NCBI RefSeq assembly: GCF_024502345.1 | Contig: NZ_JALDNN010000001.1 | From: Escherichia coli | Lineage (GTDB): Bacteria; Pseudomonadota; Gammaproteobacteria; Enterobacterales; Enterobacteriaceae | DNA: 64,000 nt | Strand: one strand, 5' to 3' | Shown here: in pieces, positions 10,651 to 51,841 of the stretch | How the letters are laid out: each line of letters opens with the position of its first letter | How positions within the stretch are numbered: the stretch's first letter is position 1 | Translations under genes and position numbers: made by a program | The notes under the pieces: generated by a model | The model's database searches: none | Seen by the model: only the letters and a program-made list of their open reading frames with translations | Told to the model about the DNA's origin: nothing

Positions 10651-10651
10651 C

Positions 10652-11674: not shown

Positions 11675-12567
11675 TGCTAAGCGAGGAAACGTCCGCCGTA
11701 CGCCCACAAAAACAAACGCGATTTAACGGTGCAAAACTGGTATGGATGCTGAAAGGCAGTCCGCTCACCGTGACCGGCGCAGTCATCATTGTATTAATGC
11801 TACTGATGATGATTTTTTCACCGTGGTTGGCGACGCATGATCCCAACGCCATTGATTTATCCGCCCGCCTTTTGCCGCCTTCTGCGGCGCACTGGTTTGG
11901 CACCGATGAAGTGGGACGCGATCTGTTTAGCCGCGTACTGGTCGGCAGTCAGCAATCAATTCTCGCCGGATTAGTCGTGGTTGCCATTGCGGGTATGATT
12001 GGTTCGCTACTCGGATGTCTATCCGGTGTGCTTGGCGGACGCGCAGACGCCATCATCATGCGCATCATGGACATTATGCTGTCGATTCCTTCGTTGGTAC
12101 TGACAATGGCACTGGCTGCCGCTCTCGGGCCGAGTTTGTTTAACGCCATGCTGGCTATTGCTATTGTGCGAATTCCCTTTTATGTGCGCCTGGCGCGGGG
12201 GCAAGCATTAGTTGTACGCCAGTATACCTATGTTCAGGCGGCGAAAACCTTTGGCGCGTCTCGTTGGCATCTGATCAACTGGCATATTTTACGTAACTCC
12301 CTACCGCCGCTGATCGTGCAGGCATCGCTGGATATCGGTAGCGCGATTTTAATGGCCGCCACGTTGGGATTTATTGGCCTGGGTGCTCAACAACCGAGTG
12401 CTGAATGGGGCGCGATGGTAGCAAATGGTCGCAACTATGTACTCGATCAGTGGTGGTATTGCGCATTTCCGGGGGCAGCGATTTTGCTTACCGCCGTCGG
12501 GTTTAATCTCTTTGGTGATGGTATTCGCGATCTGCTTGACCCGAAATCAGGAGGAAAGCAGTCATGA
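11671..12567 (+). CDS. ddpC: ABC transporter permease
   Basis: 298-aa membrane protein; 4-nt overlap with ddpB. Confidence 0.88.
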   Translation: MMLSEETSAVRPQKQTRFNGAKLVWMLKGSPLTVTGAVIIVLMLLMMIFSPWLATHDPNAIDLSARLLPPSAAHWFGTDEVGRDLFSRVLVGSQQSILAGLVVVAIAGMIGSLLGCLSGVLGGRADAIIMRIMDIMLSIPSLVLTMALAAALGPSLFNAMLAIAIVRIPFYVRLARGQALVVRQYTYVQAAKTFGASRWHLINWHILRNSLPPLIVQASLDIGSAILMAATLGFIGLGAQQPSAEWGAMVANGRNYVLDQWWYCAFPGAAILLTAVGFNLFGDGIRDLLDPKSGGKQS

Positions 12568-13550
12568 CCCAACCCGTTCTGGACATTCAACAGCTGCATT
12601 TGAGTTTCCCCGGTTTTAACGGTGATGTTCACGCGCTCAACAATGTGTCCTTGCAGATTAACCGCAGTGAAATTGTCGGTCTGGTGGGAGAATCCGGCTC
12701 AGGTAAATCAGTCACCGCAATGCTGATTATGCGTCTGCTACCGACGGGCAGTTATTGCGTACATCGGGGGCAGATTTCACTGCTGGGAGAAGATGTTCTT
12801 AACGCTCGGGAAAAACAGCTTCGTCAGTGGCGCGGCGCACGAGTGGCGATGATCTTTCAGGAACCGATGACCGCTCTTAATCCGACACGTCGAATAGGTC
12901 TTCAGATGATGGACGTAATCCGCCATCATCAACCAATAAGTCGTCGGGAAGCCAGAGCTAAAGCGATTGCCCTGCTGGAAGAGATGCAAATCCCGGATGC
13001 CGTGGAAGTTATGTCGCGCTATCCGTTTGAGCTTTCAGGTGGTATGCGCCAGCGGGTTATGATTGCGCTGGCATTTTCCTGCGAGCCGCAATTGATTATT
13101 GCCGACGAACCGACTACGGCGCTGGACGTCACGGTACAGTTGCAGGTACTGCGTTTGCTTAAACATAAAGCCCGCGCCAGTGGAACTGCGGTACTGTTCA
13201 TCAGCCATGATATGGCCGTGGTGTCGCAACTGTGCGATAGCGTTTACGTGATGTATGCCGGAAGCGTAATTGAAAGCGGCGTGACGGCAGACGTTATCCA
13301 TCATCCCCGGCATCCGTATACCATTGGTTTGCTGCAATGCGCACCAGAACATGGAGTACCACGCCAGCCATTACCCGCCATTCCAGGGACGGTACCATAC
13401 CTCACCCATTTGCCTGACGGCTGCGCTTTTCGCGATCGTTGCTATGCGGCAGGTGCACAGTGTGAAAACGTCCCGGCGCTGACAGCGTGTGGTGACAACA
13501 ACCAGCGCTGCGCCTGTTGGTATCCGCAGCAGGAGGTCATAAGTGTCTGA
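12564..13550 (+). CDS. ddpD: ABC transporter ATP-binding protein
   Basis: Walker A (GESGSGKS), signature (LSGGMRQR) and Walker B motifs; 4-nt overlap with ddpC. Confidence 0.9.
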   Translation: MTQPVLDIQQLHLSFPGFNGDVHALNNVSLQINRSEIVGLVGESGSGKSVTAMLIMRLLPTGSYCVHRGQISLLGEDVLNAREKQLRQWRGARVAMIFQEPMTALNPTRRIGLQMMDVIRHHQPISRREARAKAIALLEEMQIPDAVEVMSRYPFELSGGMRQRVMIALAFSCEPQLIIADEPTTALDVTVQLQVLRLLKHKARASGTAVLFISHDMAVVSQLCDSVYVMYAGSVIESGVTADVIHHPRHPYTIGLLQCAPEHGVPRQPLPAIPGTVPYLTHLPDGCAFRDRCYAAGAQCENVPALTACGDNNQRCACWYPQQEVISV

Positions 13551-34808: not shown

Positions 34809-35485
34809 TTCAGTATCTGAACGTCTTTTTTTACGATATCTACCCGTACATTTGTGCGACGGTGTTTTTCCTCGGCAGCTGGCTGCGCTACGACTACGGG
34901 CAGTACACCTGGCGCGCCTCCTCAAGTCAAATGCTCGATAAACGCGGGATGGTGATATGGTCGAATCTGTTCCATATCGGCATTTTGGGGATTTTCTTCG
35001 GGCACTTGTTCGGCATGTTAACGCCGCACTGGATGTACGCGTGGTTTTTGCCAGTGGCAGCGAAACAACTCATGGCGATGGTGCTCGGCGGTATTTGCGG
35101 TGTGTTGACGTTGATTGGCGGCGCAGGACTGCTGTGGCGCAGGCTGACAAATCAGCGCGTGCGTGCCACTTCCACTACGCCGGATATCATCATCATGAGC
35201 ATTTTGCTGATCCAGTGTCTGTTGGGGCTAAGTACCATACCGTTTTCAGCACAGTATCCTGATGGTAGCGAAATGATGAAGCTGGTGGGTTGGGCGCAAA
35301 GCATTGTCACTTTCCGTGGTGGATCGTCAGAGATGCTTAACGGTGTAGCGTTCGTTTTCCGCTTGCATCTGGTGTTGGGAATGACCATCTTCCTGCTCTT
35401 CCCGTTCACCCGACTGGTGCATGTGTGGAGCGCGCCGTTTGAGTACTTCACCCGCCGGTATCAGATTGTGCGCTCGCGGCGATAA
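34805..35485 (+). CDS. narV: Respiratory nitrate reductase 2 gamma subunit (cytochrome b)
   Basis: 226-aa polytopic membrane ORF, last gene of narZYWV. Confidence 0.92.
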
Positions 35486-35563: not shown

Positions 35564-36064
35564 ATGAAACCGCAGGTTTACCACGTCGATGCTTTTACCT
35601 CTCAACCATTTCGCGGCAATTCTGCCGGTGTTGTTTTCCCCGCCGATAATCTTAGCGAAGCGCAAATGCAGCTTATCGCCCGCGAATTAGGTCATTCGGA
35701 AACCACTTTTCTGCTGCACAGCGACGACAGCGATGTGCGCATCCGCTACTTTACGCCAACCGTTGAAGTTCCGATTTGTGGTCACGCGACAGTAGCTGCA
35801 CACTATGTACGTGCGAAGGTGTTAGGTTTAGGAAATTGCACGGTCTGGCAAACATCGCTGGCAGGAAAACATCGCGTGACTATCGAAAAGCACCACGATG
35901 GTTATCGTATTTCGCTGGAACAAGGTACGCCGGGCTTTGAGCCACCGCTGGAAGGTGAAACACGTGCGGCGATTATCAACGCGCTTCATCTCACTGAGGA
36001 CGATATTCTGCCAGGCTTGCCAATTCAGGTGGCAACAACAGGACACTCAAAAGGGCTTTGTTGA
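35564..36064 (+). pseudogene. yddE: PhzF-family isomerase-like gene, 3'-truncated by the IS903 insertion
   Basis: Start MKPQVYHVDAFTSQPFRGNSAGVVF. The reading frame runs into the IS left inverted repeat and ends at a stop inside the IS after about 166 codons; full-length YddE is about 297 aa. Confidence 0.8.
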
Positions 36065-37110
36065 ATAAATCGAACTTTTGCTGAGTTGAAGGATCAGATC
36101 ACGTATCTTCCCGACAACGCAGACCGTTCCGTGGCAAAGCAAAAGTTCAAAATCACCAACTGGCCCACCTACAATAAAGCCCTCATCAACCGTGGCTCCA
36201 TAACTTTCTGGCTGGATGATGAAGCTATTCAGGCCTGGTATGAGTCAGCAACACCTTCTTCACGAGGCAGACCTCAGCGCTATTCTGACCTTGCCATCAC
36301 GACTGTGCTGGTCATTAAACGCGTATTCAGGCTGACCCTGCGCGCTGCGCAGGGCTTTATTGATTCCATTTTTTCTCTGATGAACGTTCCGCTACGCTGC
36401 CCGGATTACAGCTGTGTCAGCAGGCGGGCAAAGTCGGTTAATGTCAGTTTCAAAACGCCCACCCGGGGTGAAATCGCACACCTGGTAATTGATTCCACCG
36501 GGCTGAAGGTCTTCGGTGAAGGCGAGTGGAAAGTCAAAAAGCATGGCCAGGAACGCCGCCGTATCTGGCGTAAGCTGCATCTCGCCGTTGACAGTAAAAC
36601 ACATGAAATCATCTGCGCTGACCTGTCGCTGAACAACGTTACGGACTCAGAGGCCTTCCCCGGGTTAATCCGGCAAACCCACCGGAAAATCAGGTCAGCC
36701 GCCGCCGATGGCGCTTACGATACCCGGCTATGTCACGATGAACTGCGGCGTAAGAAAATCAGCGCGCTTATCCCTCCCCGAAAAGGTGCGGGTTACTGGC
36801 CCGGTGAATATGCAGACCGTAACCGTGCAGTGGCTAATCAGCGAATGACCGGGAGTAATGCGCGGTGGAAATGGACAACAGATTACAACCGTCGCTCGAT
36901 AGCGGAAACGGCGATGTACCGGGTAAAACAGCTGTTCGGGGGTTCACTGACACTGCGTGACTACGATGGTCAGGTTGCAGAGGCTATGGCCCTGGTACGA
37001 GCGCTGAACAAAATGACGAAAGCAGGTATGCCTGAAAGCGTGCGTATTGCCTGAAAACACAACCCGCTACGGGGGAGACTTACCCGAAATCTGATTTATT
37101 CAACAAAGCC
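36056..37110 (+). mobile_element. IS903-group insertion sequence (IS5 family)
   Basis: Terminal inverted repeats GGCTTTGTTGAATAAATC at 36056..36073 and its reverse complement at 37093..37110; about 1.05 kb with a single transposase ORF. No matching 9-bp direct repeat flanks the element (actcaaaag on the left, tatgcaagg on the right). Confidence 0.9.
36086..37054 (+). CDS. IS903-family transposase
   Basis: ORF containing ...FKITNWPTYNKALINRGSITFWLDDEAIQAWY...WKVKKHGQERRRIWRKLHLAVDS...DGAYDTRLCHDELRRKKISALIPPRKGAGYWP..., matching my recollection of the IS903/IS102 transposase. The true start codon may be internal to the track ORF. Confidence 0.85.
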   Translation: MKDQITYLPDNADRSVAKQKFKITNWPTYNKALINRGSITFWLDDEAIQAWYESATPSSRGRPQRYSDLAITTVLVIKRVFRLTLRAAQGFIDSIFSLMNVPLRCPDYSCVSRRAKSVNVSFKTPTRGEIAHLVIDSTGLKVFGEGEWKVKKHGQERRRIWRKLHLAVDSKTHEIICADLSLNNVTDSEAFPGLIRQTHRKIRSAAADGAYDTRLCHDELRRKKISALIPPRKGAGYWPGEYADRNRAVANQRMTGSNARWKWTTDYNRRSIAETAMYRVKQLFGGSLTLRDYDGQVAEAMALVRALNKMTKAGMPESVRIA

Positions 37111-37483
37111 TATGCAAGGAGTATTTGATCATGTATAAGCAATAAAAACAGCTTCAGGAAATAAGGAATATCGCAATTTTTAAACATAAAATGCGAATCG
37201 TTCAATACAAAAAAGCAGCGTTGCGTAATCTTTCCCTGATTAAATACGCTACTGCCCTACCCTGATGACATGATCTGCACTGCACTATCATATAGACATG
37301 TTTCTCAACATGCGAAAAGATGTTTTATTTTCGGATTATATTAAATTGATATTTCATATAAAAAATGAAATTACATCAATCATATAAATAATTGTACCAA
37401 CTTTAATTACTATTCATAGCAAACAAATGGATATCCAGTTAACTACGCCAGTGATTCATTAACATTAACCTCCGGCATTATTG

Positions 37484-38101
37484 TTAAATAATGACATTCC
37501 TTTTTAATACTTCTTGTAATTTCGGTAACTGACATACAGCATCAGCAATCGCACTGATATTCGTGGCATTATCCTGAAACCATTCATGCCCAGGCCCCCA
37601 TGTACGCATAGTGCAAAGATAACAGTCCACCAGCGTTAGTTGCTCACCAAACGCATAAGGTTCAGCAGTGAGCTGCGAATTCAGCCAGATATAAAGCGAT
37701 TTTCGATATTCAATAACATTCTTCTTTAACTGTTCAGGTGCGTCAGGAGCCCAACGCTCAGGGTAATCGGCGAAAGTGAATGTTGGATAGATATTAGCAA
37801 CCAGCCAGACCAATAGCCGTTGAAACTGCTGGCGTTCGGTGCGCCCAACCGGTGGCGCAAGGTCCGGGCGACGATCGAGAACCATCAATGCAATCGCCGC
37901 TGTCTCCGTCATAATCTCGTCATTTTCCAATGCCAGTGTCGGAACCTGACACAACGGGTTCAGGGTTTTCAATAACTCGCGTGAAGCTCCCTCGTGGTCA
38001 AAACCACTGACATCAACGAACTGATAAGGAATATCAGCCAGTGTTAGCATCAGCTCACTGATTGTAGAGCCCCATCCGGGTACGCCATACACCTTAATCA
38101 T
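37484..38101 (-). CDS. yncG: Glutathione S-transferase homolog
   Basis: 205-aa ORF MIKVYGVPGWGSTISELMLTLADIPYQFVDV... with a GST thioredoxin-like N-terminal domain; next to ansP. Confidence 0.8.
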   Translation of the reverse strand: MIKVYGVPGWGSTISELMLTLADIPYQFVDVSGFDHEGASRELLKTLNPLCQVPTLALENDEIMTETAAIALMVLDRRPDLAPPVGRTERQQFQRLLVWLVANIYPTFTFADYPERWAPDAPEQLKKNVIEYRKSLYIWLNSQLTAEPYAFGEQLTLVDCYLCTMRTWGPGHEWFQDNATNISAIADAVCQLPKLQEVLKRNVII

Positions 38102-38367
38102 ATGCCCCTCACAATCTTTTAAAGATTAAGTGTAGGACAGTACACAGGTTAACCAGCAAAAGGATTTGTCATTTTTTCGTCAGTTGTATTATTCCCCTTC
38201 AGGATTGTAAGGGGATGTTTTGCATCGTTTATCGATAACGGGTAGGATGCTGCGCCGATAGTTTTATACCCATAAAGAATAATGGTGATAACTATCATCG
38301 CCAGGATGAATAAACATTGTTCATGGCAACTTATATGACTTTTTCATTAAAGCAATCAGGGAGAGCA

Positions 38368-39867
38368 ATGAGTAAACACGACACCGACACTTCAGATCAA
38401 CACGCCGCGAAACGCCGCTGGCTTAATGCCCACGAAGAGGGGTATCACAAAGCGATGGGCAATCGCCAGGTACAGATGATCGCCATTGGCGGCGCGATTG
38501 GCACCGGCTTGTTTTTAGGTGCAGGAGCCCGACTGCAAATGGCGGGGCCAGCACTGGCACTGGTCTATTTGATCTGCGGCCTGTTTTCATTTTTTATTCT
38601 GCGTGCATTGGGTGAGCTGGTGTTACACCGCCCTTCCAGTGGCAGTTTTGTCTCTTATGCCCGTGAGTTTTTGGGTGAGAAAGCCGCTTACGTTGCTGGC
38701 TGGATGTACTTCATCAACTGGGCGATGACAGGGATTGTCGATATCACCGCTGTAGCGCTGTATATGCATTACTGGGGTGCGTTTGGCGGCGTGCCGCAGT
38801 GGGTCTTTGCGCTCACTGCGCTGACCATCGTTGGCACCATGAATATGATCGGTGTGAAATGGTTTGCGGAGATGGAGTTCTGGTTTGCGCTTATTAAAGT
38901 GCTCGCCATTGTGACCTTTTTGGTCGTGGGTACAGTGTTCCTCGGTAGTGGTCAGCCGCTGGATGGCAACACGACTGGCTTTCATTTAATTACCGATAAC
39001 GGCGGCTTCTTCCCCCACGGTTTGCTGCCTGCTCTGGTATTGATTCAGGGCGTAGTGTTTGCTTTTGCCTCCATTGAAATGGTGGGTACAGCTGCCGGAG
39101 AATGTAAAGATCCGCAGACCATGGTGCCTAAAGCGATTAACAGTGTGATTTGGCGTATTGGCCTGTTTTACGTCGGCTCCGTGGTGTTGCTGGTTATGTT
39201 ATTGCCGTGGAGCGCGTATCAGGCGGGGCAAAGTCCGTTCGTGACGTTTTTCTCTAAACTGGGTGTGCCATATATCGGCAGCATTATGAACATTGTGGTG
39301 CTGACCGCTGCCCTCTCCAGCCTGAATTCAGGTCTGTACTGCACCGGACGTATTCTGCGCTCAATGGCGATGGGCGGTTCCGCACCGAGTTTTATGGCGA
39401 AAATGAGTCGTCAGCATGTGCCGTATGCCGGGATTCTGGCGACACTGGTTGTGTATGTCGTCGGCGTATTCCTCAACTATCTGGTGCCGTCGCGCGTATT
39501 TGAGATTGTGTTGAACTTCGCGTCGCTGGGAATCATCGCTTCATGGGCGTTTATCATCGTGTGCCAGATGCGCCTGCGTAAAGCGATTAAAGAAGGCAAA
39601 GCAGCGGATGTCAGTTTTAAACTGCCTGGCGCGCCCTTCACTTCCTGGCTGACATTACTGTTTTTACTGAGTGTCCTTGTGCTGATGGCGTTCGATTACC
39701 CGAACGGGACTTATACTATCGCGGCGCTGCCGATTATCGGTATTCTGCTGGTTATAGGCTGGTTTGGTGTGCGCAAACGCGTTGCTGAAATTCACAGCAC
39801 TGCGCCAGTCGTCGAGGAAGATGAAGAAAAACAGGAAATTGTGTTTAAGCCTGAAACGGCGAGCTAA
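38368..39867 (+). CDS. ansP: L-asparagine permease (APC family)
   Basis: Start at MSKHDTDTSDQHAAKRRWLNAHEEGYHKAMGNRQVQMIAIGG (499 aa). Confidence 0.9.
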   Translation: MSKHDTDTSDQHAAKRRWLNAHEEGYHKAMGNRQVQMIAIGGAIGTGLFLGAGARLQMAGPALALVYLICGLFSFFILRALGELVLHRPSSGSFVSYAREFLGEKAAYVAGWMYFINWAMTGIVDITAVALYMHYWGAFGGVPQWVFALTALTIVGTMNMIGVKWFAEMEFWFALIKVLAIVTFLVVGTVFLGSGQPLDGNTTGFHLITDNGGFFPHGLLPALVLIQGVVFAFASIEMVGTAAGECKDPQTMVPKAINSVIWRIGLFYVGSVVLLVMLLPWSAYQAGQSPFVTFFSKLGVPYIGSIMNIVVLTAALSSLNSGLYCTGRILRSMAMGGSAPSFMAKMSRQHVPYAGILATLVVYVVGVFLNYLVPSRVFEIVLNFASLGIIASWAFIIVCQMRLRKAIKEGKAADVSFKLPGAPFTSWLTLLFLLSVLVLMAFDYPNGTYTIAALPIIGILLVIGWFGVRKRVAEIHSTAPVVEEDEEKQEIVFKPETAS

Positions 39868-39872
39868 TTGCA

Positions 39873-39902
39873 AAATTGCCCGGCTACGTGCCGGGCAAAT
39901 TT
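39873..39902. terminator. Bidirectional Rho-independent terminator between ansP and yncE
   Basis: Stem aaattgcccggc/gccgggcaaattt flanked by A-run and T-run, between two convergent genes. Confidence 0.75.
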
Positions 39903-39979
39903 AGATTACTGACGAAGGTGCCGCATGCGGCGTGATAAAAGTCAGGCAAGTCTCTCCGTTTTCACCCTCGCCATATCTA

Positions 39980-41041
39980 TTACAGCGCAATACGAATCAC
40001 ATCGTCCGGCTGGGTAGCTTCCTGCTGTTTAGTGGATTTTTGTTTCACACTGACATACAGCGTTTTGCCATCGGCAGACAGCGCCAGGCTGTTCGGATGA
40101 GTCGGCGTATCGAACGTTTTCACCACTTTATAGCTTTTCGCGTCAATCACACTGACTTTACCTGCCTGACGATGCGTTACGTAGGCTTCATTACGCGCTG
40201 GGTTAAACAGCACAGCCAGTGATTCCGGTGCCGCAACCTTCGCCAGAATATTGCCATTACGGGTATCGACCACTAACACTTCTGCCGCTTTAGAATCGGT
40301 GATAAATGCACGCTGCCTGGCGGTATCAAGGCTAATGTTGATAAAGAAGTGCTCTTTGCCGTCATCCAGCAGCTTTTTACGGCTGAGGATTTTATTGTCG
40401 GCGGTGTCGATGGTAATCAATTCGCCGTCAGCGTTAGTGGTGTAAAGACGTTTGCCTTTGCTATCCAGCGCCAGACCAGTACTCATTTTACCGGTGTTCT
40501 GGATGGCGGTTTTCAGTTTGATATTCTCGCCATCAACGACCCAAATCACGCTCTCTTTACCAATACCACTGATGTAAACGGTGTTCGTGGCATCATCAGC
40601 TACCAGCTCACGCGGTTGCAGCGGGCGCACTTCTTCCGTGCGCTTACGATCATCCAGCACCAGACGGCCTTTCACCTCGCCAGTTTTGGCATCTATCGCC
40701 GTGACCGCGCTGTTTACGGTGTTACCAAACCACAACGTCTGAGTCGTGTTATTGATGGTGGCACCAAACGGCTTGAGATCGTTATGGATCGCCTGCGTCA
40801 CTTCCAGAGTGACCGGATCAAGACGATAAACCACGCCACCTTTATCCAGTTTGCGGCTTTGCGAAGTGGCGAGCCACAGTGCGTTTTCTTGCTGGCTATA
40901 AGCCATTTCGTAGGCACCTTTACCTACCGCTTTACGCAGCATTTCTTCTGCGGCCTGCGTACTGAATGATGAAGCAACAAGCAATGAACCTAACAGTAAT
41001 GAACCACGCAGGCGCGATGAAAACAGATGACGTAAATGCAT
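39980..41041 (-). CDS. yncE: Secreted beta-propeller protein (YncE)
   Basis: 353-aa ORF with signal peptide (MHLRHLFSSRLRGSLLLGSLLVASSFSTQA) and repeated propeller-like segments. Confidence 0.85.
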   Translation of the reverse strand: MHLRHLFSSRLRGSLLLGSLLVASSFSTQAAEEMLRKAVGKGAYEMAYSQQENALWLATSQSRKLDKGGVVYRLDPVTLEVTQAIHNDLKPFGATINNTTQTLWFGNTVNSAVTAIDAKTGEVKGRLVLDDRKRTEEVRPLQPRELVADDATNTVYISGIGKESVIWVVDGENIKLKTAIQNTGKMSTGLALDSKGKRLYTTNADGELITIDTADNKILSRKKLLDDGKEHFFINISLDTARQRAFITDSKAAEVLVVDTRNGNILAKVAAPESLAVLFNPARNEAYVTHRQAGKVSVIDAKSYKVVKTFDTPTHPNSLALSADGKTLYVSVKQKSTKQQEATQPDDVIRIAL

Positions 41042-41282
41042 GACGACTCCCTTTGATGAACCGATATTTTTGCTGCTTCACAATGCTTCGCTAAGCGTAA
41101 TCATCGTTACGCTCTTGTTATAAATGGGAATGGTAATCATTATTTTCTCAAATGTGGAGCATTTCTTGCCGTTACGACTACAATTTTCTCAATTACTTAA
41201 CGTATTGTGCCGTTTCATTTTCCATAAATTTACAATTTCATTACCATGACGGCGTTTTCCCATTCTTAACCTGGCTTTTTTC

Positions 41283-43385
41283 ATGAAGATTTTTTCCGTC
41301 CGACAGACCGTTTTGCCCGCACTGCTTGTCCTTTCCCCCGTTGTTTTTGCCGCTGATGAACAGACCATGATTGTCAGTGCCGCGCCGCAGGTGGTTTCAG
41401 AACTGGATACCCCTGCAGCAGTAAGCGTGGTGGATGGCGAGGAGATGCGCCTGGCAACACCGCGCATTAACTTGTCCGAATCACTGACCGGCGTGCCTGG
41501 TTTGCAGGTACAAAACCGGCAGAACTATGCGCAAGATTTACAGCTGTCGATTCGCGGATTTGGCTCCCGTTCCACTTACGGAATTCGCGGTATTCGCCTG
41601 TATGTGGACGGTATTCCCGCCACCATGCCCGACGGGCAAGGGCAAACATCCAACATCGATTTAAGCAGTGTGCAAAATGTGGAAGTGCTGCGTGGCCCCT
41701 TCTCTGCCCTGTATGGCAACGCGTCTGGCGGTGTAATGAATGTCACCACCCAGACCGGACAACAGCCACCAACCATTGAAGCCAGTAGTTACTACGGCAG
41801 TTTTGGCAGCTGGCGCTATGGGCTGAAAGCAACGGGCGCAACGGGAGACGGCACACAGCCCGGCGATGTCGATTACACTGTCTCAACCACGCGTTTTACG
41901 ACACACGGCTATCGTGACCATAGTGGCGCACAGAAAAATTTAGCCAATGCCAAACTGGGCGTACGCATTGATGAAGCCAGCAAATTAAGCCTGATTTTCA
42001 ATAGCGTGGATATCAAAGCAGATGACCCAGGTGGGCTAACCAAAGCAGAATGGAAGGCGAATCCACAACAAGCGCCTCGTGCAGAACAGTACGACACGCG
42101 AAAAACCATCAAGCAAACTCAGGCTGGGTTGCGCTATGAACGTAGCCTGAGTTCGCGGGATGATATGAGTATGATGATGTATGCCGGAGAGCGAGAAACG
42201 ACCCAGTACCAGTCAATACCCATGGCACCACAACTTAACCCGTCACATGCGGGCGGCGTGATTACCCTGCAACGCCATTACCAGGGAATAGACAGCCGCT
42301 GGACACACCGTGGTGAACTGGGCGTTCCGGTCACGTTCACTACCGGCCTGAACTACGAAAACATGAGTGAAAACCGCAAGGGCTACAATAACTTCCGCCT
42401 GAATAGCGGCATGCCGGAGTACGGGCAAAAAGGTGAGTTGCGTCGCGACGAACGCAATCTGATGTGGAACATCGATCCCTATTTACAGACGCAGTGGCAG
42501 CTGAGCGAAAAACTGTCGCTGGATGCTGGCGTGCGCTACAGCTCCGTGTGGTTTGATTCCAACGATTATTACGTTACTCCGGGTAACGGCGATGACAGCG
42601 GTGATGCCAGTTATCACAAATGGCTACCTGCCGGTTCGTTAAAATATGCAATGACCGATGCCTGGAATATCTATCTGGCAGCCGGGCGTGGTTTTGAAAC
42701 GCCGACGATTAATGAGCTGTCTTATCGTGCTGATGGGCAAAGCGGTATGAACTTTGGTTTAAAACCATCCACCAACGATACAATTGAGATCGGCAGTAAA
42801 ACGCGTATTGGTGATGGGCTGCTTAGTCTCGCATTGTTTCAGACCGACACCGATGATGAAATTGTTGTCGATAGCAGTAGCGGTGGGCGTACGACTTACA
42901 AAAATGCCGGAAAGACCCGTCGTCAAGGCGCTGAACTGGCATGGGATCAACGTTTCGCGGGAGATTTTCGCGTAAACGCGTCCTGGACCTGGCTTGATGC
43001 GACCTATCGCAGCAATGTTTGCAACGAACAGGATTGTAACGGTAATCGGATGCCAGGGATCGCCCGTAATATGGGCTTTGCGTCGATAGGTTATGTACCG
43101 GAAGATGGTTGGTATGCAGGCACGGAAGCGCGTTATATGGGCGATATTATGGCAGATGATGAAAATACGGCAAAAGCGCCGTCTTATACTCTCGTCGGCT
43201 TATTCACCGGGTATAAATACAATTACCACAATTTAACTGTGGATTTATTTGGTCGTGTCGATAATTTATTCGATAAAGAATACGTTGGTTCTGTCATTGT
43301 CAATGAGTCAAACGGGCGATATTACGAACCTGCGCCCGGACGAAATTATGGTGTCGGCATGAATATTGCGTGGAGATTTGAGTAA
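41283..43385 (+). CDS. yncD: TonB-dependent outer-membrane receptor
   Basis: 700-aa ORF with signal peptide, plug and barrel, ending in the C-terminal aromatic residue (…NIAWRFE). Confidence 0.88.
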   Translation: MKIFSVRQTVLPALLVLSPVVFAADEQTMIVSAAPQVVSELDTPAAVSVVDGEEMRLATPRINLSESLTGVPGLQVQNRQNYAQDLQLSIRGFGSRSTYGIRGIRLYVDGIPATMPDGQGQTSNIDLSSVQNVEVLRGPFSALYGNASGGVMNVTTQTGQQPPTIEASSYYGSFGSWRYGLKATGATGDGTQPGDVDYTVSTTRFTTHGYRDHSGAQKNLANAKLGVRIDEASKLSLIFNSVDIKADDPGGLTKAEWKANPQQAPRAEQYDTRKTIKQTQAGLRYERSLSSRDDMSMMMYAGERETTQYQSIPMAPQLNPSHAGGVITLQRHYQGIDSRWTHRGELGVPVTFTTGLNYENMSENRKGYNNFRLNSGMPEYGQKGELRRDERNLMWNIDPYLQTQWQLSEKLSLDAGVRYSSVWFDSNDYYVTPGNGDDSGDASYHKWLPAGSLKYAMTDAWNIYLAAGRGFETPTINELSYRADGQSGMNFGLKPSTNDTIEIGSKTRIGDGLLSLALFQTDTDDEIVVDSSSGGRTTYKNAGKTRRQGAELAWDQRFAGDFRVNASWTWLDATYRSNVCNEQDCNGNRMPGIARNMGFASIGYVPEDGWYAGTEARYMGDIMADDENTAKAPSYTLVGLFTGYKYNYHNLTVDLFGRVDNLFDKEYVGSVIVNESNGRYYEPAPGRNYGVGMNIAWRFE

Positions 43386-43394
43386 TTACCTTGA

Positions 43395-43412
43395 GGCCCG
43401 GTATTTGCCGGG
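43395..43412. terminator. Hairpin between convergent yncD and mcbR
   Basis: gcccgg-tatttg-ccgggc inverted repeat followed by a T-rich stretch. Confidence 0.55.
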
Positions 43413-43420
43413 CATTTACT

Positions 43421-44086
43421 TTAACGATTGTATTGCTGGTATAAAATAGCAATATTTTGTTGCATAATTTCAGCAAGACAATGTCTGCATCCCTCTTTGT
43501 CTTTTGCTTTTAACGCAGCGAGTAACAGATGATAGTTTTCTATATGCTCCCGTAATTCCGCTGGATTAATCGCTTCATAGAGATAATGTAAACCAGGCCC
43601 CATCCTGACCCACAGTTGCTCAATCATCTCACACAGGATGGGCATATTCGAGCGATGATAAATCGCTAAGCGAAATAGCCTGTTTACATTAATGATTTGT
43701 TCCATGTCGCCCTTTTCTTGCGCCTGCTGTAATTTCTCGAGCAATTCCTGGAGTTCCGCCAGGTCTGGCGGGGTGAGGTTTTCAACAGCCAGAGTAACTG
43801 CCATTAATTCCAGTTCGTAGCGGATCCGATTGATTTCGTCTAATTGACGTTTCCCCACTTCCGGAACTGTAAATGCTTGCGCTGGTGCGACAGAAAGCGC
43901 ATTCACCGAAACCAGACGTAATAATGCTTCACGCACAGGTGTAAAACTCATACCTAATTGCTCCGCCAGATTTTTAGTAATCAGGCGTGCGCCAGGTTTT
44001 AGTGCGCCAATACTAAGCTGATGTTTCAGGTCGTTCTCAACCTGCAGAGTCAAACTGACATGTTTCATTTTTTCCGTTCCAGGCAT
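43421..44086 (-). CDS. mcbR: GntR/FadR-family transcriptional regulator
   Basis: Start at MPGTEKMKHVSLTLQVENDL... (about 221 aa); N-terminal winged HTH. Confidence 0.85.
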   Translation of the reverse strand: MPGTEKMKHVSLTLQVENDLKHQLSIGALKPGARLITKNLAEQLGMSFTPVREALLRLVSVNALSVAPAQAFTVPEVGKRQLDEINRIRYELELMAVTLAVENLTPPDLAELQELLEKLQQAQEKGDMEQIINVNRLFRLAIYHRSNMPILCEMIEQLWVRMGPGLHYLYEAINPAELREHIENYHLLLAALKAKDKEGCRHCLAEIMQQNIAILYQQYNR

Positions 44087-44283
44087 TTTAATTCCTTCGC
44101 GTGTTTTCTGTCCAACCCTGCCTGCATGGCAGAAGGAATTCACCTGGTGTATTAAAGTGAATAATCATAAACCACTCACCTTTGTTGTTATTAACAGCAG
44201 AACAATGATGTGGTTAGTTAATTAAAGCTGAAAATAAGCTTTTTGCCTGGATTTTTATGGCGGCTTATGCCGCCGTTGAAACT

Positions 44284-45321
44284 TTAATCATCACCCGCCA
44301 CGCGGATCACCACTTTGCCGAAGTTTTTACCCTTCAGCAGGCCGATAAACGTCTGTGGCGCATTCTCTAAACCGTCAGTAATTTCTTCTCGGTAGTGGAT
44401 TTTATCCTCTTTCACCCATTGCCCCATCTCCTTCTGAAACTCATGGATGCGGTGACCATAATCCTGAGCGATAATAAACCCTTGCAAGCGAATACGTTTT
44501 TTCAGCACCGTTGCCATCAACAGGGGTAAACGATCCGGACCGGGTGGTAGCTCTGTAGCGTTATAGCTGCTCACTAAGCCACAAACGGGAATGCGCGCAG
44601 ATGTATTAAGTAATGGTAGCACTGCATCAAATACCTTACCGCCCACGTTTTCATAATAGATATCAATACCTTTTGGGCACGCTTTCGCCAGTTGTTCGGC
44701 AAAATCGTCCGCGTGGTGATCAAGGCAAACATCGAAGCCTAACACCTCGGTAGCATGGCGGCATTTTTCCGCGCCACCGGCTACCCCCACCACTCTGCAA
44801 CCTTTAAGTTTGCCGATTTGCCCCACCGTCGCCCCCACTGGTCCTGTCGCCGCAGCTACCACCAACGTTTCGCCCTCTTTAGGCTGACCGATATCCAGCA
44901 GCCCCATATAAGCGGTAAAGCCTGGCATCCCCAGCACACCCAGCGACCACGATGGATTTTGCGGATGATCGCCAAGTTTCACCAGATCATCACCACTGGA
45001 TATGTCATAGTCCTGCCATCCACTGTAGCCCAGCACCCAGTCGCCAGGCTGATAATCAGGATGATTCGACTCCACGACACGGCTCACCGTACCGCCGACC
45101 ATCACGCCGCCAATATCAACCGGCGGTGAATAAGATGGCTCATCGCTCATACGTCCACGCATATACGGGTCCAGGGACAAATAAACTGTGCGCAGTAACA
45201 CCTGTCCTTCACCCGGTGTGGCGACATCATCTTCTTCAAGACGGAAATTCTCCGGAACCGGTGCGCCATGCGGACGCGAGGCCAGAACCCAACGTCGATT
45301 ACGCTGCTTTTGTTGCCCCAT
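44284..45321 (-). CDS. curA: NADPH-dependent curcumin reductase / medium-chain dehydrogenase
   Basis: Start at MGQQKQRNRRWVLASRPHGAPVPENF (345 aa); Rossmann motif AAATGPVGATVGQI. Confidence 0.88.
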   Translation of the reverse strand: MGQQKQRNRRWVLASRPHGAPVPENFRLEEDDVATPGEGQVLLRTVYLSLDPYMRGRMSDEPSYSPPVDIGGVMVGGTVSRVVESNHPDYQPGDWVLGYSGWQDYDISSGDDLVKLGDHPQNPSWSLGVLGMPGFTAYMGLLDIGQPKEGETLVVAAATGPVGATVGQIGKLKGCRVVGVAGGAEKCRHATEVLGFDVCLDHHADDFAEQLAKACPKGIDIYYENVGGKVFDAVLPLLNTSARIPVCGLVSSYNATELPPGPDRLPLLMATVLKKRIRLQGFIIAQDYGHRIHEFQKEMGQWVKEDKIHYREEITDGLENAPQTFIGLLKGKNFGKVVIRVAGDD

Positions 45322-45501
45322 AATGCTCTCCTGTGCTTTTGGCATGAATCCATCAATAGTAGCAGGCTCACGGGATTGGTTTTGTTTGCAGCCGTCACAT
45401 CCCCTCTGCAACACGCAATAATTTCATCGAGGAATCCGTTGCTTCGGGCTGTTTTCGATAGTATTGATAACATCATCATCATTATTTTATTGAGGCCAGA
45501 C

Positions 45502-46020
45502 ATGTCCATCCGTTTTGCCCGCAAAGCCGACTGTGCTGCCATTGCGGAAATTTATAACCACGCCGTGTTGTATACGGCGGCTATCTGGAATGACCAAACG
45601 GTGGATGCAGATAACCGCATTGCCTGGTTTGAAGCGCGGACCATAGCAGGTTATCCGGTGCTGGTAAGTGAAGAAGATGGCGTAGTGACGGGATATGCCT
45701 CATTTGGCGACTGGCGTAGTTTCGATGGTTTTCGCCATACCGTGGAACATTCGGTTTATGTCCATCCCGATCATCAGGGCAAAGGTCTGGGGCGTAAATT
45801 GTTAAGCCGATTGATTGATGAAGCGCGGGATTGCGGGAAGCATGTCATGGTCGCCGGGATCGAATCGCAAAATCAGGCCTCGCTGCATCTGCACCAGTCG
45901 CTGGGATTTGTCGTCACCGCACAAATGCCGCAGGTGGGCACTAAATTTGGGCGCTGGCTGGATCTGACATTTATGCAGTTGCAACTCGACGAACGCACTG
46001 AACCGGACGCGATTGGATGA
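45502..46020 (+). CDS. mnaT: GNAT N-acetyltransferase (L-amino-acid N-acyltransferase)
   Basis: 172-aa ORF MSIRFARKADCAAIAEIYNHAVLYTAAIWN... with a GNAT motif (QGKGLGRKLL). Confidence 0.85.
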   Translation: MSIRFARKADCAAIAEIYNHAVLYTAAIWNDQTVDADNRIAWFEARTIAGYPVLVSEEDGVVTGYASFGDWRSFDGFRHTVEHSVYVHPDHQGKGLGRKLLSRLIDEARDCGKHVMVAGIESQNQASLHLHQSLGFVVTAQMPQVGTKFGRWLDLTFMQLQLDERTEPDAIG

Positions 46021-46466
46021 ATCAGTCGCTCACCCTTGCCTTTTTGATTGCCGCCGGAATTGGTCTGGTAGTCCAGAACACGCTGATGGTGCGCATCACC
46101 CAGACCTCCTCTATCATTCTCATCGCCATGTTGCTGAACTCACTGGTGGGGATTGTGCTCTTTGTTTCTATTTTATGGTTTAAACAAGGTATGGCGGGGT
46201 TTGGCGAACTGGTGTCCAGCGTGCGCTGGTGGACACTTATACCTGGCTTGCTGGGATCGTTTTTTGTCTTCGCCAGTATCAGCGGATATCAGAATGTGGG
46301 AGCGGCGACAACTATTGCAGTACTGGTCGCCAGCCAGCTGATTGGCGGTCTGGTTCTGGATATCTTCCGCAGTCATGGCGTACCACTACGGGCGTTGTTC
46401 GGCCCAATTTGTGGCGCAATTTTACTTGTGGTTGGCGCCTGGTTGGTAGCCAGACGCTCATTTTAA
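46017..46466 (+). CDS. ydcZ: DMT-superfamily inner-membrane protein
   Basis: 149-aa hydrophobic ORF overlapping the mnaT stop by 4 nt. Confidence 0.8.
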   Translation: MNQSLTLAFLIAAGIGLVVQNTLMVRITQTSSIILIAMLLNSLVGIVLFVSILWFKQGMAGFGELVSSVRWWTLIPGLLGSFFVFASISGYQNVGAATTIAVLVASQLIGGLVLDIFRSHGVPLRALFGPICGAILLVVGAWLVARRSF

Positions 46467-46700
46467 TCACAGGATGGTGCCGCCTTTGGTTAACTGTTCA
46501 TGGCGCGCTTCCATATCTTCTTTATGCTTGCGACCGTGATGAGCAATAGCGGTGCGCAAACGCTGCTGCTGGGTGTAGCGATCTTCCCGACTTAACTCCG
46601 CGTCATCGCTCAGGGCGATTAATAATTCGTTCATATGGGCAATGACGCTCTCTTCAATCGCGGCATCCACGCGCGCGATGACTTCATCCAGATGCGACAT
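46467..46700 (-). CDS. ydcY: Small conserved protein YdcY
   Basis: 77-aa ORF MSHLDEVIARVDAAIEESVIAHMNELLIAL... Confidence 0.75.
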   Translation of the reverse strand: MSHLDEVIARVDAAIEESVIAHMNELLIALSDDAELSREDRYTQQQRLRTAIAHHGRKHKEDMEARHEQLTKGGTIL

Positions 46701-46785
46701 ACTTTCTCCTTAGCCACTTGTGAAATTTATCGATTCATCCAAATGATATAAGTCTGCGTGGTGCCGTCAAGCCAGTGAGTAAGAT

Positions 46786-46959
46786 TTAAAACAGTGAAAA
46801 CAACAGCGCCACCGGGAAACTCATCGGCCATGTGGCCCCCACCAGAAAGGCGCTTAAGAAACGGATGCGTTTCTTATCGTGAGAAAGAAACCAGGTGATA
46901 AGAAATGCGATTGCTGCCATAACCGCATAAAAAACAAGCATGTGTTGATAGAGAGACAT
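46786..46959 (-). CDS. ortT: Small membrane toxin OrtT (orphan toxin, GhoT-like)
   Basis: 57-aa ORF MSLYQHMLVFYAVMAAIAFLITWFLSHDKKRIRFLSAFLVGATWPMSFPVALLFSLF from the internal ATG of the track ORF. Confidence 0.8.
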   Translation of the reverse strand: MSLYQHMLVFYAVMAAIAFLITWFLSHDKKRIRFLSAFLVGATWPMSFPVALLFSLF

Positions 46960-47153
46960 GTACGGGCGTCCAGCCAGATGAATAAAACGCGCGCAAATAT
47001 GCGTCATTTTTTGACGTGCATCAAGTTTTTTCACCAGTTAGAGAAAAAATCATCAAACAGCAACTTGCCCTTATCCATCTTCAGAATGAGTATTATTGCG
47101 GATTTTCTTAACCCGTACTATACACATAGGGGCAATGATAAAAGGTGGCAAAA

Positions 47154-47249
47154 ATGAATGTTTCCAGTAGAACTGTAGTACTGATAAATGTCTTTGCTGC
47201 TGTTGGTTTGTTTACTCTTATCTCTATGAGATTTGGCTGGTTTATTTGA
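47154..47249 (+). CDS. yncL: Small membrane protein YncL (31 aa)
   Basis: ATG preceded by SD aaaggtgg; translation MNVSSRTVVLINVFAAVGLFTLISMRFGWFI; too short for the ORF track. Confidence 0.7.
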   Translation: MNVSSRTVVLINVFAAVGLFTLISMRFGWFI

Positions 47250-47270
47250 TGTAGTGATTTTGCACGCAGC

Positions 47271-47308
47271 ACGTACTGTCAGAGAAATCAACTCTCTGAC
47301 AGTACGCA
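47271..47308. repeat. Perfect 12-13 bp inverted repeat (hairpin) just downstream of yncL
   Basis: acgtactgtcagag ... ctctgacagtacg with an 8-10 nt loop; no clear U-tract. Confidence 0.6.
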
Positions 47309-47650
47309 AGATCTTCTCATACTCTCCAGGTTTACAACATTATCCTTAATATTTACTTCTTTTTGCTGGCATCTACATTGAAATGAGTAGAAAACATCCC
47401 CCTACTGTCGTCTATACAAACAGCTTACTGATTCAAAGGGAATCTTGTTTTCACATTTTTCTATCATGAATACTTTATACGCGCGGGAGTCTATAAATGC
47501 TTTATACTTTCAAGGAATAACGCAAATATAAAAAGATGGCGTAAAGTATATGCATGGCAGGATGTTTGCAACCTCCTTCATGACGCTGCCCCATTGAAAT
47601 TGCAAACCCCGCCCTGGTTATCTTGCCCATTTATCATGCAAAACAGATAA

Positions 47651-48460
47651 TTATAGGCCTCTGAATACCTCAGAAAGATTGAATTTTTTATAGTCCCTCT
47701 CTTGAATATTTCCATTTGAAATCAATCGATTCATCTCTTCAACAAAATAATTTATATCATCACACTTGTTATTATCCGGAAGATCTGAGTAGTTATAATT
47801 CCACCATTTTATTCTCAACAGTTCATCAATAACATTTGAATCAAACCTAAATCTGATTATTTTTGCAGGAACTCCTGCAACTATGGCATATGGGGGCACA
47901 TCTTTGGTAACAACGGAATTGGCAGCAATAACAGCACCATCACCTATTGTGATGCCACCTTTCAATACAACATCATTTCCTATCCAGACATCATTTCCTA
48001 TAATCGGATTTTCAGGTTTTGTAATGAATGGTTTCAATGTCCAGCTACGTTCAAACTCACTCATAGCAAACTTATCAAATTCACCGTTATAAGTCATCAT
48101 GTGAGTAGTAAAACGATTCAAAGAATGATTTCCACCCATTATTTTTACATTTGATGCAATACTACAAAATCGACCTATACGTATATTCCCTGAAAAATGA
48201 CAGGTCGGAAATGAAAAAGCGCCGACACTGGAGAAATTTTTTACAGGCATTGTTGAATATTCTTCAGCAATAACATTATCTTCAATTGTTATCTTGTCAC
48301 CTTTTGAGAAAAGAAATAAATTCCTTTCTTTATACGACTTCTTCCCCTTATGATTTAAAAAGATTTTATTATCCATACAAAACTCAAAGTGTTTTTTCGT
48401 CCATCTGAAGGTAAGGGGTTTATTTTTATCTTCCGTGAATTTGTACAATTGAACTTTCAT
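47651..48460 (-). CDS. Hexapeptide-repeat acetyltransferase, XAT family (CatB/Vat-like)
   Basis: 269-aa ORF; the C-terminal half (…GRFCSIASNVKIMGGNHSLNRF…IGNDVWIGNDVVLKGGITIGDGAVIAANSVVTKDVPPYAIVAGVPAKIIRFRFDSNVIDELLRIKWWNY…) closely resembles the conserved core of CatB chloramphenicol and Vat streptogramin-A acetyltransferases. Markedly AT-rich. Confidence 0.75.
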   Translation of the reverse strand: MKVQLYKFTEDKNKPLTFRWTKKHFEFCMDNKIFLNHKGKKSYKERNLFLFSKGDKITIEDNVIAEEYSTMPVKNFSSVGAFSFPTCHFSGNIRIGRFCSIASNVKIMGGNHSLNRFTTHMMTYNGEFDKFAMSEFERSWTLKPFITKPENPIIGNDVWIGNDVVLKGGITIGDGAVIAANSVVTKDVPPYAIVAGVPAKIIRFRFDSNVIDELLRIKWWNYNYSDLPDNNKCDDINYFVEEMNRLISNGNIQERDYKKFNLSEVFRGL

Positions 48461-48633
48461 TGTTAATACTTCTACTTATAAAGTATTAGTTTAATAACGA
48501 TACTCTAAAGCCTTATGCTAATCAACTGTGACAGGATGAAAAATCGCCATCAAACATTTAGCCTAATTTTTACGCTAGTTATTAATGTAATCATTCTAAT
48601 ACTTAACCGCCATTAAACTCAGAACCGAAAACG

Positions 48634-48660
48634 ATAGTGGCCGTCCTATAACAGCCACTA
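48634..48660 (-). terminator. Putative terminator after patD
   Basis: agtggc/gccact hairpin just downstream of the patD stop on the minus strand. Confidence 0.45.
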
Positions 48661-48669
48661 ACATCTAAC

Positions 48670-50094
48670 TTAATGTTTAACCATGACGTGGCGGACGACG
48701 GTGTAATCCTCCAGCCCATAAAGTGACATATCCTTGCCGTAACCAGAAAGTTTCTGCCCACCGTGCGGCATTTCACTTACCAGCATGAAATGGGTATTGA
48801 CCCAGGTACAACCATATTGCAGTCGTGCGCTGACGCGATGCGCCCTGCCCACATCTTTCGTCCATACCGAAGATGCAAGTCCGTACTGGCTGTCATTCGC
48901 CCAGTTCACCACCTGTTCTTCGTTGTCGAAGAGCGTAACACTCACTACTGGACCAAATACCTCTTTTTGCACGATGGCATCGTCCTGTAATGCGCCAGCC
49001 AGCAGCGTCGGCTCATAGTAATAGCCATTACCCTTGCGCTTTTCACCGCCAGTGATCACTTTGATGTGCCCTGTCGCTTTCGCCTCTTCTACTGCCTTGC
49101 TGACGCGTTCGAGATGCGCCAGCGAGCTTAAAGGTCCAAGCTCCGTAGACTCGTCATCCGGCGCACCAGATTTTAACGTTGCCACTGCAGCACCGAGTTT
49201 TTCCACCAACGTATCGTAAATGCCTTTTTGCGCGTAGATCCGACAAGCCGCAGTACAATCCTGTCCGGCATTGTAATAGCCAAATGTACGTACACCTTCG
49301 ACCACTGCTTCAATATCCGCATCATCAAAAACAATCACTGGCGCTTTGCCACCAAGTTCCATATGAGTTCGCTTAATGGACGGCGCGGTATGGCTGATGA
49401 TGTGCTCGCCGGTGGCGATAGAGCCCGTCAGCGACACCATCCGCACTTTGGGATGACCGGTCAGCGGATCGCCCACCGTTTTGCCTCTGCCAAACAGCAC
49501 ATTAATCACGCCTGCCGGGAAGATATCTTTCGCCAGCCCTGCCAACTTCAACGCGGTCAGCGGGGTAATTTCTGATGGTTTAAGCACTACGCAGTTCCCT
49601 GCCGCCAGCGCCGGAGCAAGTTTCCACGCTGCCATCATCAGCGGATAATTCCACGGTGCGATAGAAGCCACGACCCCCAACGGATCGCGACGGATCATCG
49701 AAGTATGACCTTCAAGATATTCACCTGCCGCCAGACCATTCAGACAGCGCGCCGCACCCGCGAAAAAGCGAAAAACATCGACAATCGCCGGGATTTCATC
49801 ATTGAACGCACTATGCAGCGGTTTGCCACAATTACGGGACTCCAGTTCGGCAAAAACCTGACCATTTTCTTCGATTACATCAGCCAGTTTCAGCAGACAT
49901 TCCGCACGCACTTTCGGCGTGGTTTGCCCCCATTCGGCAAATGCTGCATCTGCCGCGCGCACAGCAGCATCGACCTGCTCTGCGGATGCCTCGGCAATCT
50001 CCAGTAAAACGTCCCCCGTTGCCGGACTATAGACAGGCTGTTTTTCCCCTTCGCCGCTAACCAGTTCTCCGTTAATCAGTAACTTATGTTGCAT
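48670..50094 (-). CDS. patD: Gamma-aminobutyraldehyde dehydrogenase (aldehyde dehydrogenase family)
   Basis: 474-aa ORF with ALDH catalytic region (…ELGGKAP…, …GQDCTAACR…); downstream of ydcSTUV. Confidence 0.9.
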
Positions 50095-50115
50095 AGCATA
50101 TTCCTGTATCAGTGG

Positions 50116-50910
50116 TTATTGACCATTGTCGCCTTCGCGGGTTAGCCACCAGGCCCCCAGGATCGGCAAGGTTGTTACCAACATAACCAGCAGTGCCACC
50201 ACGTTAGTTACCGGTACATCACGCGGTCGCCCAAGCTGATTGAGCAACCACAACGGTAACGTTCGTTCATGACCTGCCGTAAAGGTCGTAACGATGATTT
50301 CATCGAACGACAAGGCAAACGCCAGCATTCCTCCTGCCAGTAACGCCGAACTGAGATTCGGCAACACTACGTAGCGGAAGGTTTGCCAGCCATTGGCCCC
50401 AAGATCCATTGACGCCTCAACCAGACTCCATGAGGTGCGGCGAAAACGGGCGATGACATTGTTAAACACCACAACTACACAAAAAGTCGCATGACCGACC
50501 ACGATGGTGAAAAATCCCGGCTCCAGATTGATGGTTTTAAAGGCGGTTAATAACGCCAGACCAGTGACAATGCCCGGCAGCGCAATGGGCAGCAGCAGTA
50601 ACAGCGAAATGGCGTTTTTGCCGAAAAAGTCTCGTCGCCACAGCGCGCCAGCTGCCAGCGTCCCTAACACCAGCGCCATTAATGTCGCCAGCGCCGCCAC
50701 TTTAAGTGACAGTGTCACGGCATCAAGAATATCACTACGCTGTGCTGCCACGCTAAACCAGCGCAGCGTCAGGCCCTGCGGTGGAAAACTAAACGCCGCA
50801 TCTTCAGTGTTAAACGCATAGGCGGCGATTATCAGGATGGGAAAATGTAGGAAAACAACGCCGCCCCAGGCCGCCAGTTTGAGGAAAAACGGTGCGCGTT
50901 CAGAGTGCAT
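50116..50910 (-). CDS. ydcV: ABC transporter permease (polyamine-type)
   Basis: 264-aa membrane ORF. Confidence 0.85.
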
Positions 50911-51841
50911 CGAACGCTCCCAGACGTTTCACGAACGCCAGGTACAGTGCGATGAGAACAATCGGCACCAGGGTGAATGCCGCCGCCATCGGCATATTGC
51001 CAATCGCCCCCTGCTGGGAATAAACCATATTGCCGATAAAATATCCTGGCGGGCCAACCAGCTGCGGGACGATAAAATCGCCCAGTGTGAGTGAGAAGGT
51101 AAAGATAGAGCCAGCGGCAATGCCCGGGATCGCCAGCGGCAGCACCACATAGCGAAAGGTTTGTCGTGGACGTGCGCCGAGATCAGCCGACGCCTGCAAC
51201 AATGACGGCGGCAAACGCTCAAGCGCCGCCTGCACGGGCAGGATCATGAACGGCAGCCAGATATAGAGAAACACCAGAAAGCGCCCCAGCCCGGAAGTTG
51301 ACAGCGTATTGCCGCCCACCGCAGGTAATGTAAGGAACGCAGTCAGCAGTGGTTCCAGCCCAAGATGTTGTAAAAACCACTGAGCCACGCCATCTTTTGC
51401 CAGCAATAACGTCCAGGCATAGGCTTTAACAATGTAGCTCGCCCACATCGGCAACATTACCGCAATATAAAAAAACGCTTTCATTTTCCCGCTGGTATAG
51501 CGCGCCATATACCACGCCATTGGAAAAGCCAGAATGGCGCTGGCGATAGTGACTGCCACAGCCATAGTCAGCGTGCGGAGAATGATGTCGTAATTTGCCG
51601 GATTAAACAGCGCACGGATGTTCGCCAGCGTCCGTTCCGGCGTTACCGACATGGTGAAATCGTCAAAGGTATAAAAGCCCTGCCATAACAGCGTTAGCAG
51701 CGAGCCGAAATAGACAATGCCAAACCACATTAGCGGGCCAAGCAGCAGCAAAAACAGCCCCAGCCCCGGATTCCGCCAGAAGAAACCGGACACCTTACCC
51801 AGACCTGGACGTGAAGGTGATTGCAATACGTTCATCGCCAT
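50900..51841 (-). CDS. ydcU: ABC transporter permease (polyamine-type)
   Basis: 313-aa membrane ORF; overlaps ydcV by 11 nt. Confidence 0.85.

Follow-up and report, generated by a model that had tools for sequence, protein, structure and literature searches.

IS903B is an insertion sequence (IS) of 1057 bp that is found in Tn903-related elements and in many enterobacterial chromosomes and plasmids. On insertion, elements of the IS903 group normally produce a 9-bp duplication of the target (PMC8431375). Adjacent deletions are common for IS903, and the absence of a duplication usually means either an adjacent deletion or recombination between two IS copies (PMC11708052). In the Lenski long-term lines, each of the 14 duplication-less IS-associated deletions was traced to an adjacent deletion by an IS that had inserted beforehand (PMC11708052).

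A 64-kb stretch of Escherichia coli DNA was analysed. It is called the window below, positions are counted from its first nucleotide, and it was the part of the genome visible for the deletion analysis. An IS903B copy without target-site duplication was found in it between a truncated yddE gene and yncG. The exact breakpoints, the missing DNA and the intact IS were observed directly, and we conclude with high confidence that this copy bounds a genuine chromosomal deletion of 8,442 bp.

The element belongs to the IS5 family, IS903 group. Its boundaries, ends and gene are as follows.

36054–37110, + strand: complete IS903B of 1057 bp, defined by its inverted-repeat pair and by a match to the MSB1_9D copy at all but 1 of 1057 nt.
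36054–36071, + strand: left terminal inverted repeat GGCTTTGTTGAATAAATC (exact match).
37093–37110, − strand: right terminal inverted repeat, identical to the left repeat throughout (exact match).
36131–37054, + strand: transposase gene with a GTG start, encoding 307 aa; intact, and the single ORF of IS903B.

The 18-bp terminal inverted repeats are perfect. The 64-kb window holds two exact matches to their sequence, inverted relative to each other, whereas chance would give 0.1 matches, and the number of matches was still two when up to 3 mismatches were allowed. The transposase was aligned with the NCBIfam profile NF033579 (IS5-family transposase) over profile positions 1–289 of 289, with a score of 357.6 bits (cut-off, 140 bits). 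Residues D121, D193 and E259, which we take to be the catalytic DDE triad of IS903, are present in the 307-aa protein. For comparison, the chromosomal copy of strain MSB1_9D was used, which is named 'IS5-like element IS903B family transposase' by RefSeq/PGAP. The nucleotide identity between the two copies is 99.9%; the sole differing base, at position 36103, is synonymous in the extended ORF, and the transposase amino acids are identical to those of the RefSeq-annotated IS903B-family transposase of MSB1_9D. Perfect ends, a single full-length transposase ORF and 99.9% identity indicate that the element is an intact IS903B, that is, an already known insertion sequence. With its ends and its ORF intact, the copy may still be mobile. 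A preliminary description of the locus, made from the letters of the sequence, had reported intact IS903-type inverted repeats and an intact transposase ORF, and both were recovered here. The range that it gave to the element (36056–37483) started 2 bp late and, at its end, took in a 373-bp spacer that lies outside the IS.

The flanking DNA was then compared over 9 bp on each side of the IS.

36045–36053, no strand: left flank ACTCAAAAG, the final yddE sequence ahead of the IS; TGATGATCC comes immediately after it in IS-free relatives.
37111–37119, no strand: right flank TATGCAAGG; in IS-free relatives it is preceded directly by a sequence ending in TTCTCCTTAAT.

The two flanks match at 4 of 9 positions and differ at the other 5, so no target-site duplication surrounds the IS over these 9 bp. 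Re-inspection of the exact ends therefore left standing the earlier statement that the 9 bp differ on the two sides. The absence of the duplication is a property of the insertion event and not of IS903B, and it is explained by the associated deletion.

On the left, the IS interrupts a gene encoding a PhzF-family isomerase.

35564–36064, + strand: truncated yddE, delimited by its ORF and by NCBIfam profiles.

Intact yddE encodes 297 aa in relatives. Here, as the preliminary description had recognized, the element cuts into the gene, and the break was placed after codon 163 of 297. Native codons 1–163 are followed by Gly-Leu-Cys and a TGA stop codon (36062–36064) that are supplied by the IS end. 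Residues 1–163 were aligned with positions 1–165 of 301 of the NCBIfam profiles PRK10281/TIGR00654. The remnant carries a single private substitution (A48T) and hence shows no trace of prolonged decay. The 166-aa fusion product (the YddE remnant ending in GLC) is on record, in exactly this form, in 3–4 other contigs of 20–50 kb from NCBI and ENA assemblies; these contigs reach no further than the IS, and sequence past it is not shown by them. Over 10.6 kb, the ERZ27268145 contig among them shows 99.89% identity to the window; it agrees with the window at every base across the left junction, and its end lies 133 bp into the IS. From the recorded fusion product and this junction match, it follows that the yddE::IS903B junction is not a one-off confined to one sample and is present in other samples of a slightly diverged lineage.

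On the right, three features were delimited.

37111–37245, − strand: relic of the 5' untranslated end of an ISAs1-family element (H-repeat, ydcC-like), 128–135 bp, recognized by 86% identity over 129 bp to TC24.
37246–37483, no strand: rest of a native AT-rich intergenic spacer, adjoining the yncG stop codon; recognized by its contiguity with yncG in relatives.
37484–38101, − strand: yncG (glutathione S-transferase family), intact and convergent with the transposase gene; recognized by its ORF, a profile match and the RefSeq annotation of relatives.

The right end of the IS is separated from the yncG stop codon by 373 bp with 31% G+C (37111–37483), in agreement with the approximately 370 bp of AT-rich DNA described earlier. 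The yncG gene is followed by ansP and then by the usual downstream genes, and the exact YncG protein was found in many assemblies. The spacer is contiguous with yncG at 98–100% identity in A30, 042, O145 and the closest IS-free relative (L017, see below). It was found at full length in 695 of the 5,426 complete E. coli genomes (e.g. 042, O145:H28 and A30). In every spacer-bearing genome that was opened (A30, 042, 2018-05-2CC, A16 and O145:H28 RM9872), it forms the intergenic region between yncG and the PAAR gene. Judged by these relatives, the 373-bp AT-rich stretch is the native yncG–PAAR intergenic spacer. The homology to yncH or to rhs flanks for which the preliminary description had proposed to inspect 37111–37483 was sought there and none was found; in the K-12-type strains MSB1_9D and M15, the alignment begins only at the yncG stop codon.

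The ISAs1 relic inside the spacer is 86% identical over 129 bp to the DNA directly upstream of ydcC in TC24, and paralogous copies in A30 and M15 share 83–85% identity with it. An E. coli genome contains a median of 3 matches to the 373-bp spacer in which it lies. The relic copy of the IS-free relatives lies between the PAAR gene and yncG and is 25 bp longer leftward, where it enters the first codons of the ISAs1 transposase gene. Because the relic extends past the junction in these relatives, it predates the IS903B event, and the junction with the IS falls within the relic. An ORF across the right junction that could be used for protein look-up was also sought; only a 31-aa ORF was present, and its product is independent of the IS. 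Strain DLI.6n was considered as a possible carrier of the same right junction and was rejected, as its IS903-like element (93% identical) lies 11 bp away in a paralogous ISAs1-end repeat.

The missing DNA was defined by comparison with IS-free relatives. The closest one (L017; contig DADKVO010000032.1, GCA_017173755.1) was reached by exact-protein look-up with the YncG sequence of the window. Its identity to the window is 100.000% for the 10,121 bp rightward from 37111 and 99.83% for the 1.2 kb that leads up to 36053. No IS is present in it, and exactly 8,442 bp lie between its two breakpoints (L017 10122–18563). In an ENA metagenome contig (L016), the right flank is 99.98% identical to the window, and the intervening segment (8,443 bp by coordinates) is 99.95% identical to that of L017. 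Alignments of the window to L017, L016, A30, 042 and O145 stop at 36053 and resume at 37111, which are the exact IS termini. Both flanks of IS903B are collinear with those of the IS-free relatives and have kept the ancestral orientation. No part of the 8,442-bp segment was found elsewhere in the 64-kb window. Among the 5,426 complete E. coli genomes, neither the arrangement of truncated yddE next to the spacer nor either IS junction was found. The DNA between the breakpoints measures 12.9 kb in A30, 9.1 kb in 042, 11.2 kb in 2018-05-2CC, 15.2 kb in A16 and 7.5 kb in O145:H28 RM9872. The order past the spacer in these five opened genomes is PAAR–VgrG island, ISAs1 fragments, pptA, yddH, nhoA and yddE (pptA is not annotated in 042). 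The preliminary reading that the duplication-less IS marks a deletion between yddE and yncG, and not a simple insertion, is thus upheld, since 8,442 bp of near-identical relatives are absent. The size of the loss, which had been put at about 10 kb, was corrected to 8.4 kb (8,442 bp relative to L017).

The 8,442-bp segment contains the last 134 codons of yddE, nhoA, yddH, pptA, an ISAs1 fragment, small ORFs, a peptidase-M35-like gene, a Tox-PAAR-like/C39 effector gene, a DUF2169 gene and a fused PAAR'/VgrG' remnant. In this remnant, a 48-aa PAAR fragment runs into a 111-aa C-terminal fragment of VgrG (L016 10429–10907; L017 ~10122–10870). The pptA–yncG island is wholly gone from the window. As this island is already decayed in the closest IS-free relatives, the deleted orphan T6SS island was probably non-functional before its loss. 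In the closest relatives, the missing segment carries neither yncH, rhsE, ydcD and yncI nor an intact ydcC. The earlier list of lost genes, based on K-12 gene order, was therefore right for nhoA, yddH and pptA, which are in the segment of the relatives, and wrong for yncH, rhsE, ydcD, yncI and ydcC. The K-12 gene content does not apply to this lineage, in which the lost island is, by comparison with those relatives, of an already decayed PAAR type; four genes of housekeeping type went with it.

Among the routes to this structure, a classical IS903 adjacent deletion appears the most likely, and we give it about an even chance of being the true one. One IS903B would first have entered one of two sites, the interior of yddE or a point 166 bp upstream of the remnant of the PAAR gene. 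A later transposition, intramolecular and of the replicative type, would have directed the distal end of this IS against the second site of that chromosome. The DNA in between would have been excised as a circle that was then lost, and what remained would have been one IS with flanks from two different places. With flanks of such different origin, no 9-bp duplication would be expected. We infer both the order of these events and the involvement of the transposase. The hypothetical intermediate, with an intact duplication, would have the junctions CAACAAAGCC+ACTCAAAAGTGATGATCC if the IS had been in yddE, and TTCTCCTTAATTATGCAAGG+GGCTTTGTTG if it had been upstream of the PAAR remnant. A single-IS intermediate of this kind at either site was absent from the 5,426 complete E. 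coli genomes, and the left junction had no matches in the GTDB species representatives. The yddE 3' products predicted for a simple-insertion intermediate were not on record in the exact-protein look-up, which is a weak negative.

A possible but less probable route is a RecA-dependent crossover between two direct IS903B copies, by which 8.4 kb and one IS would have been removed. One copy would have been in yddE, where it duplicated ACTCAAAAG, and the other upstream of the PAAR remnant, where it duplicated TATGCAAGG; the predicted product is exactly the observed structure. Adjacent deletion and this recombination are expected to leave identical sequence and are inseparable by sequence. E. coli genomes can be rich in IS903B, with matches at 33 places in MSB1_9D and at as many as 47 in a single genome, and IS903-group elements occupy other sites of the yddE–yncG interval in other strains. 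The short-read metagenome contig carrying the left junction breaks off 133 bp into the IS, and this break suggests that the IS was repeated in that sample. A crossover would, however, require two independent insertions in the same orientation within 8.4 kb, and no strain with either single insertion was found (5,426 complete genomes; protein look-up). An adjacent deletion requires one insertion and one intramolecular event. Adjacent deletion is favoured over recombination by this parsimony (one insertion against two) and by the documented habit of IS903.

It is improbable that the structure arose in one step, with IS903B captured into a deletion break without staggered cuts made by the transposase, so that a duplication never formed. 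Such a capture was proposed in E. coli C for an IS5-family element of the IS903 subgroup that appeared, without duplication, at the centre of a deletion of 62 kb; the mechanism has the status of a hypothesis, and its authors concede that an adjacent deletion could account for the 62-kb case (PMC11708052). At the present locus, both IS ends are base-precise, as in normal transposition. The absence of any intermediate is compatible with a single step, but the search for intermediates was shallow.

Slighter still is the probability of an assembly artefact, in which two IS903B copies flanking the 8.4 kb were collapsed into one and the deletion is false. A repeat collapse would give exactly the observed structure, and the contigs that independently carry the left junction end within the IS and show nothing past it. 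Yet the 64-kb window runs unbroken through the IS, whereas short-read assemblers usually break at such repeats, as happened in the ENA contig, and none of the 8.4 kb is in the window.

A simple insertion into a chromosome whose natural gene order places yddE beside yncG, the duplication having decayed afterwards, was rejected: IS-free relatives hold 8,442 bp between the breakpoints, 7.5–15.2 kb separates the two points in every relative examined, and truncated yddE adjoins the spacer in 0 of 5,426 complete E. coli genomes. The flanks disagree at 5 of 9 positions, yet the right flank is otherwise 100% identical to a relative over 10 kb. An inversion across the yddE–yncG interval was also excluded, as was simple insertion again, by the position of the breaks exactly at the IS termini and by the ancestral order and orientation of the flanks.

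Several observations were made on the surroundings. IS903-group elements are present elsewhere in the yddE–yncG interval in MSB1_9D (L001, 9001–10057), M15 (L002, 9001–10057), DLI.6n (L005, ~11094–12150) and TC24 (L006, ~12008–13064). They lie within pptA, beside copies of ISAs1 or in the interval from vgrG to yncH, and some adjoin truncated genes; this sample is biased, the query having contained the IS, and no hotspot is claimed. The ancestry of the window is mosaic. Its 27–35 kb part is 99–100% identical to TC24, a strain with a K-12-type rhsE island, and the stretch comparable with a15, another strain with an island of this type, is 99–100% identical over 32.6–35 kb. The yddE fragment and the right flank (37111–52000) are closest to PAAR-type strains. 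The change of ancestry is located near 35000 and not at the IS. An ancestry switch at the IS, i.e. an imported segment, was rejected, as the identities per kb are those of ordinary mosaicism and show no switch there. Approximately 1.5 kb with most of a porin gene (ompC-like in A16 and O145) is missing at window positions ~25668–25673, between yddG and a leucine-rich-repeat gene. In the yncL–patD interval, a 1.3-kb segment (47355–48669) carries a gene for a CatB-related O-acetyltransferase (47651–48460, − strand); the segment is present in the window, 042, 2018-05-2CC and a15, and absent in A30.

By this deletion, YddE was truncated, and nhoA, yddH, pptA and the decayed orphan T6SS effector island were lost. 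The lineage has lost yddE function through an IS903B-bounded deletion. The IS903B copy at the scar retains all it needs to move; it is apparently active and could drive deletions toward narV or yncG. The importance of the event is small outside strain bookkeeping. It provides a clean worked example of an IS without target duplication signalling a rearrangement, and it warns against relying on the gene order of K-12 for the variable pptA–yncG island.

Compared with known systems, the element has the reference features of IS903B: a length of ~1057 bp, 18-bp inverted repeats and one DDE transposase of ~307 aa. Elements of the IS903 group usually have a 9-bp duplication, whereas the copy in the window has none. 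The lost DNA resembles the E. coli rhsE/orphan vgrG island between pptA and yncG in its position, its T6SS spike and effector genes and its ISAs1 (H-repeat) fragments. In contrast to the K-12 yncH–rhsE type, the ancestor of this lineage had the decayed PAAR type, with no yncH and no Rhs core. The IS-associated deletion process itself is of an already known, textbook kind. Unlike the deletions of the Lenski lines, this one is in a natural isolate, and its pre-deletion intermediate was not observed. Like the IS-mediated deletions known from IS903 genetics and those of IS150 and IS1 in the Lenski lines, it combines a single IS without duplication, breaks at the IS ends, collinear flanks and a loss of several kb (PMC11708052).
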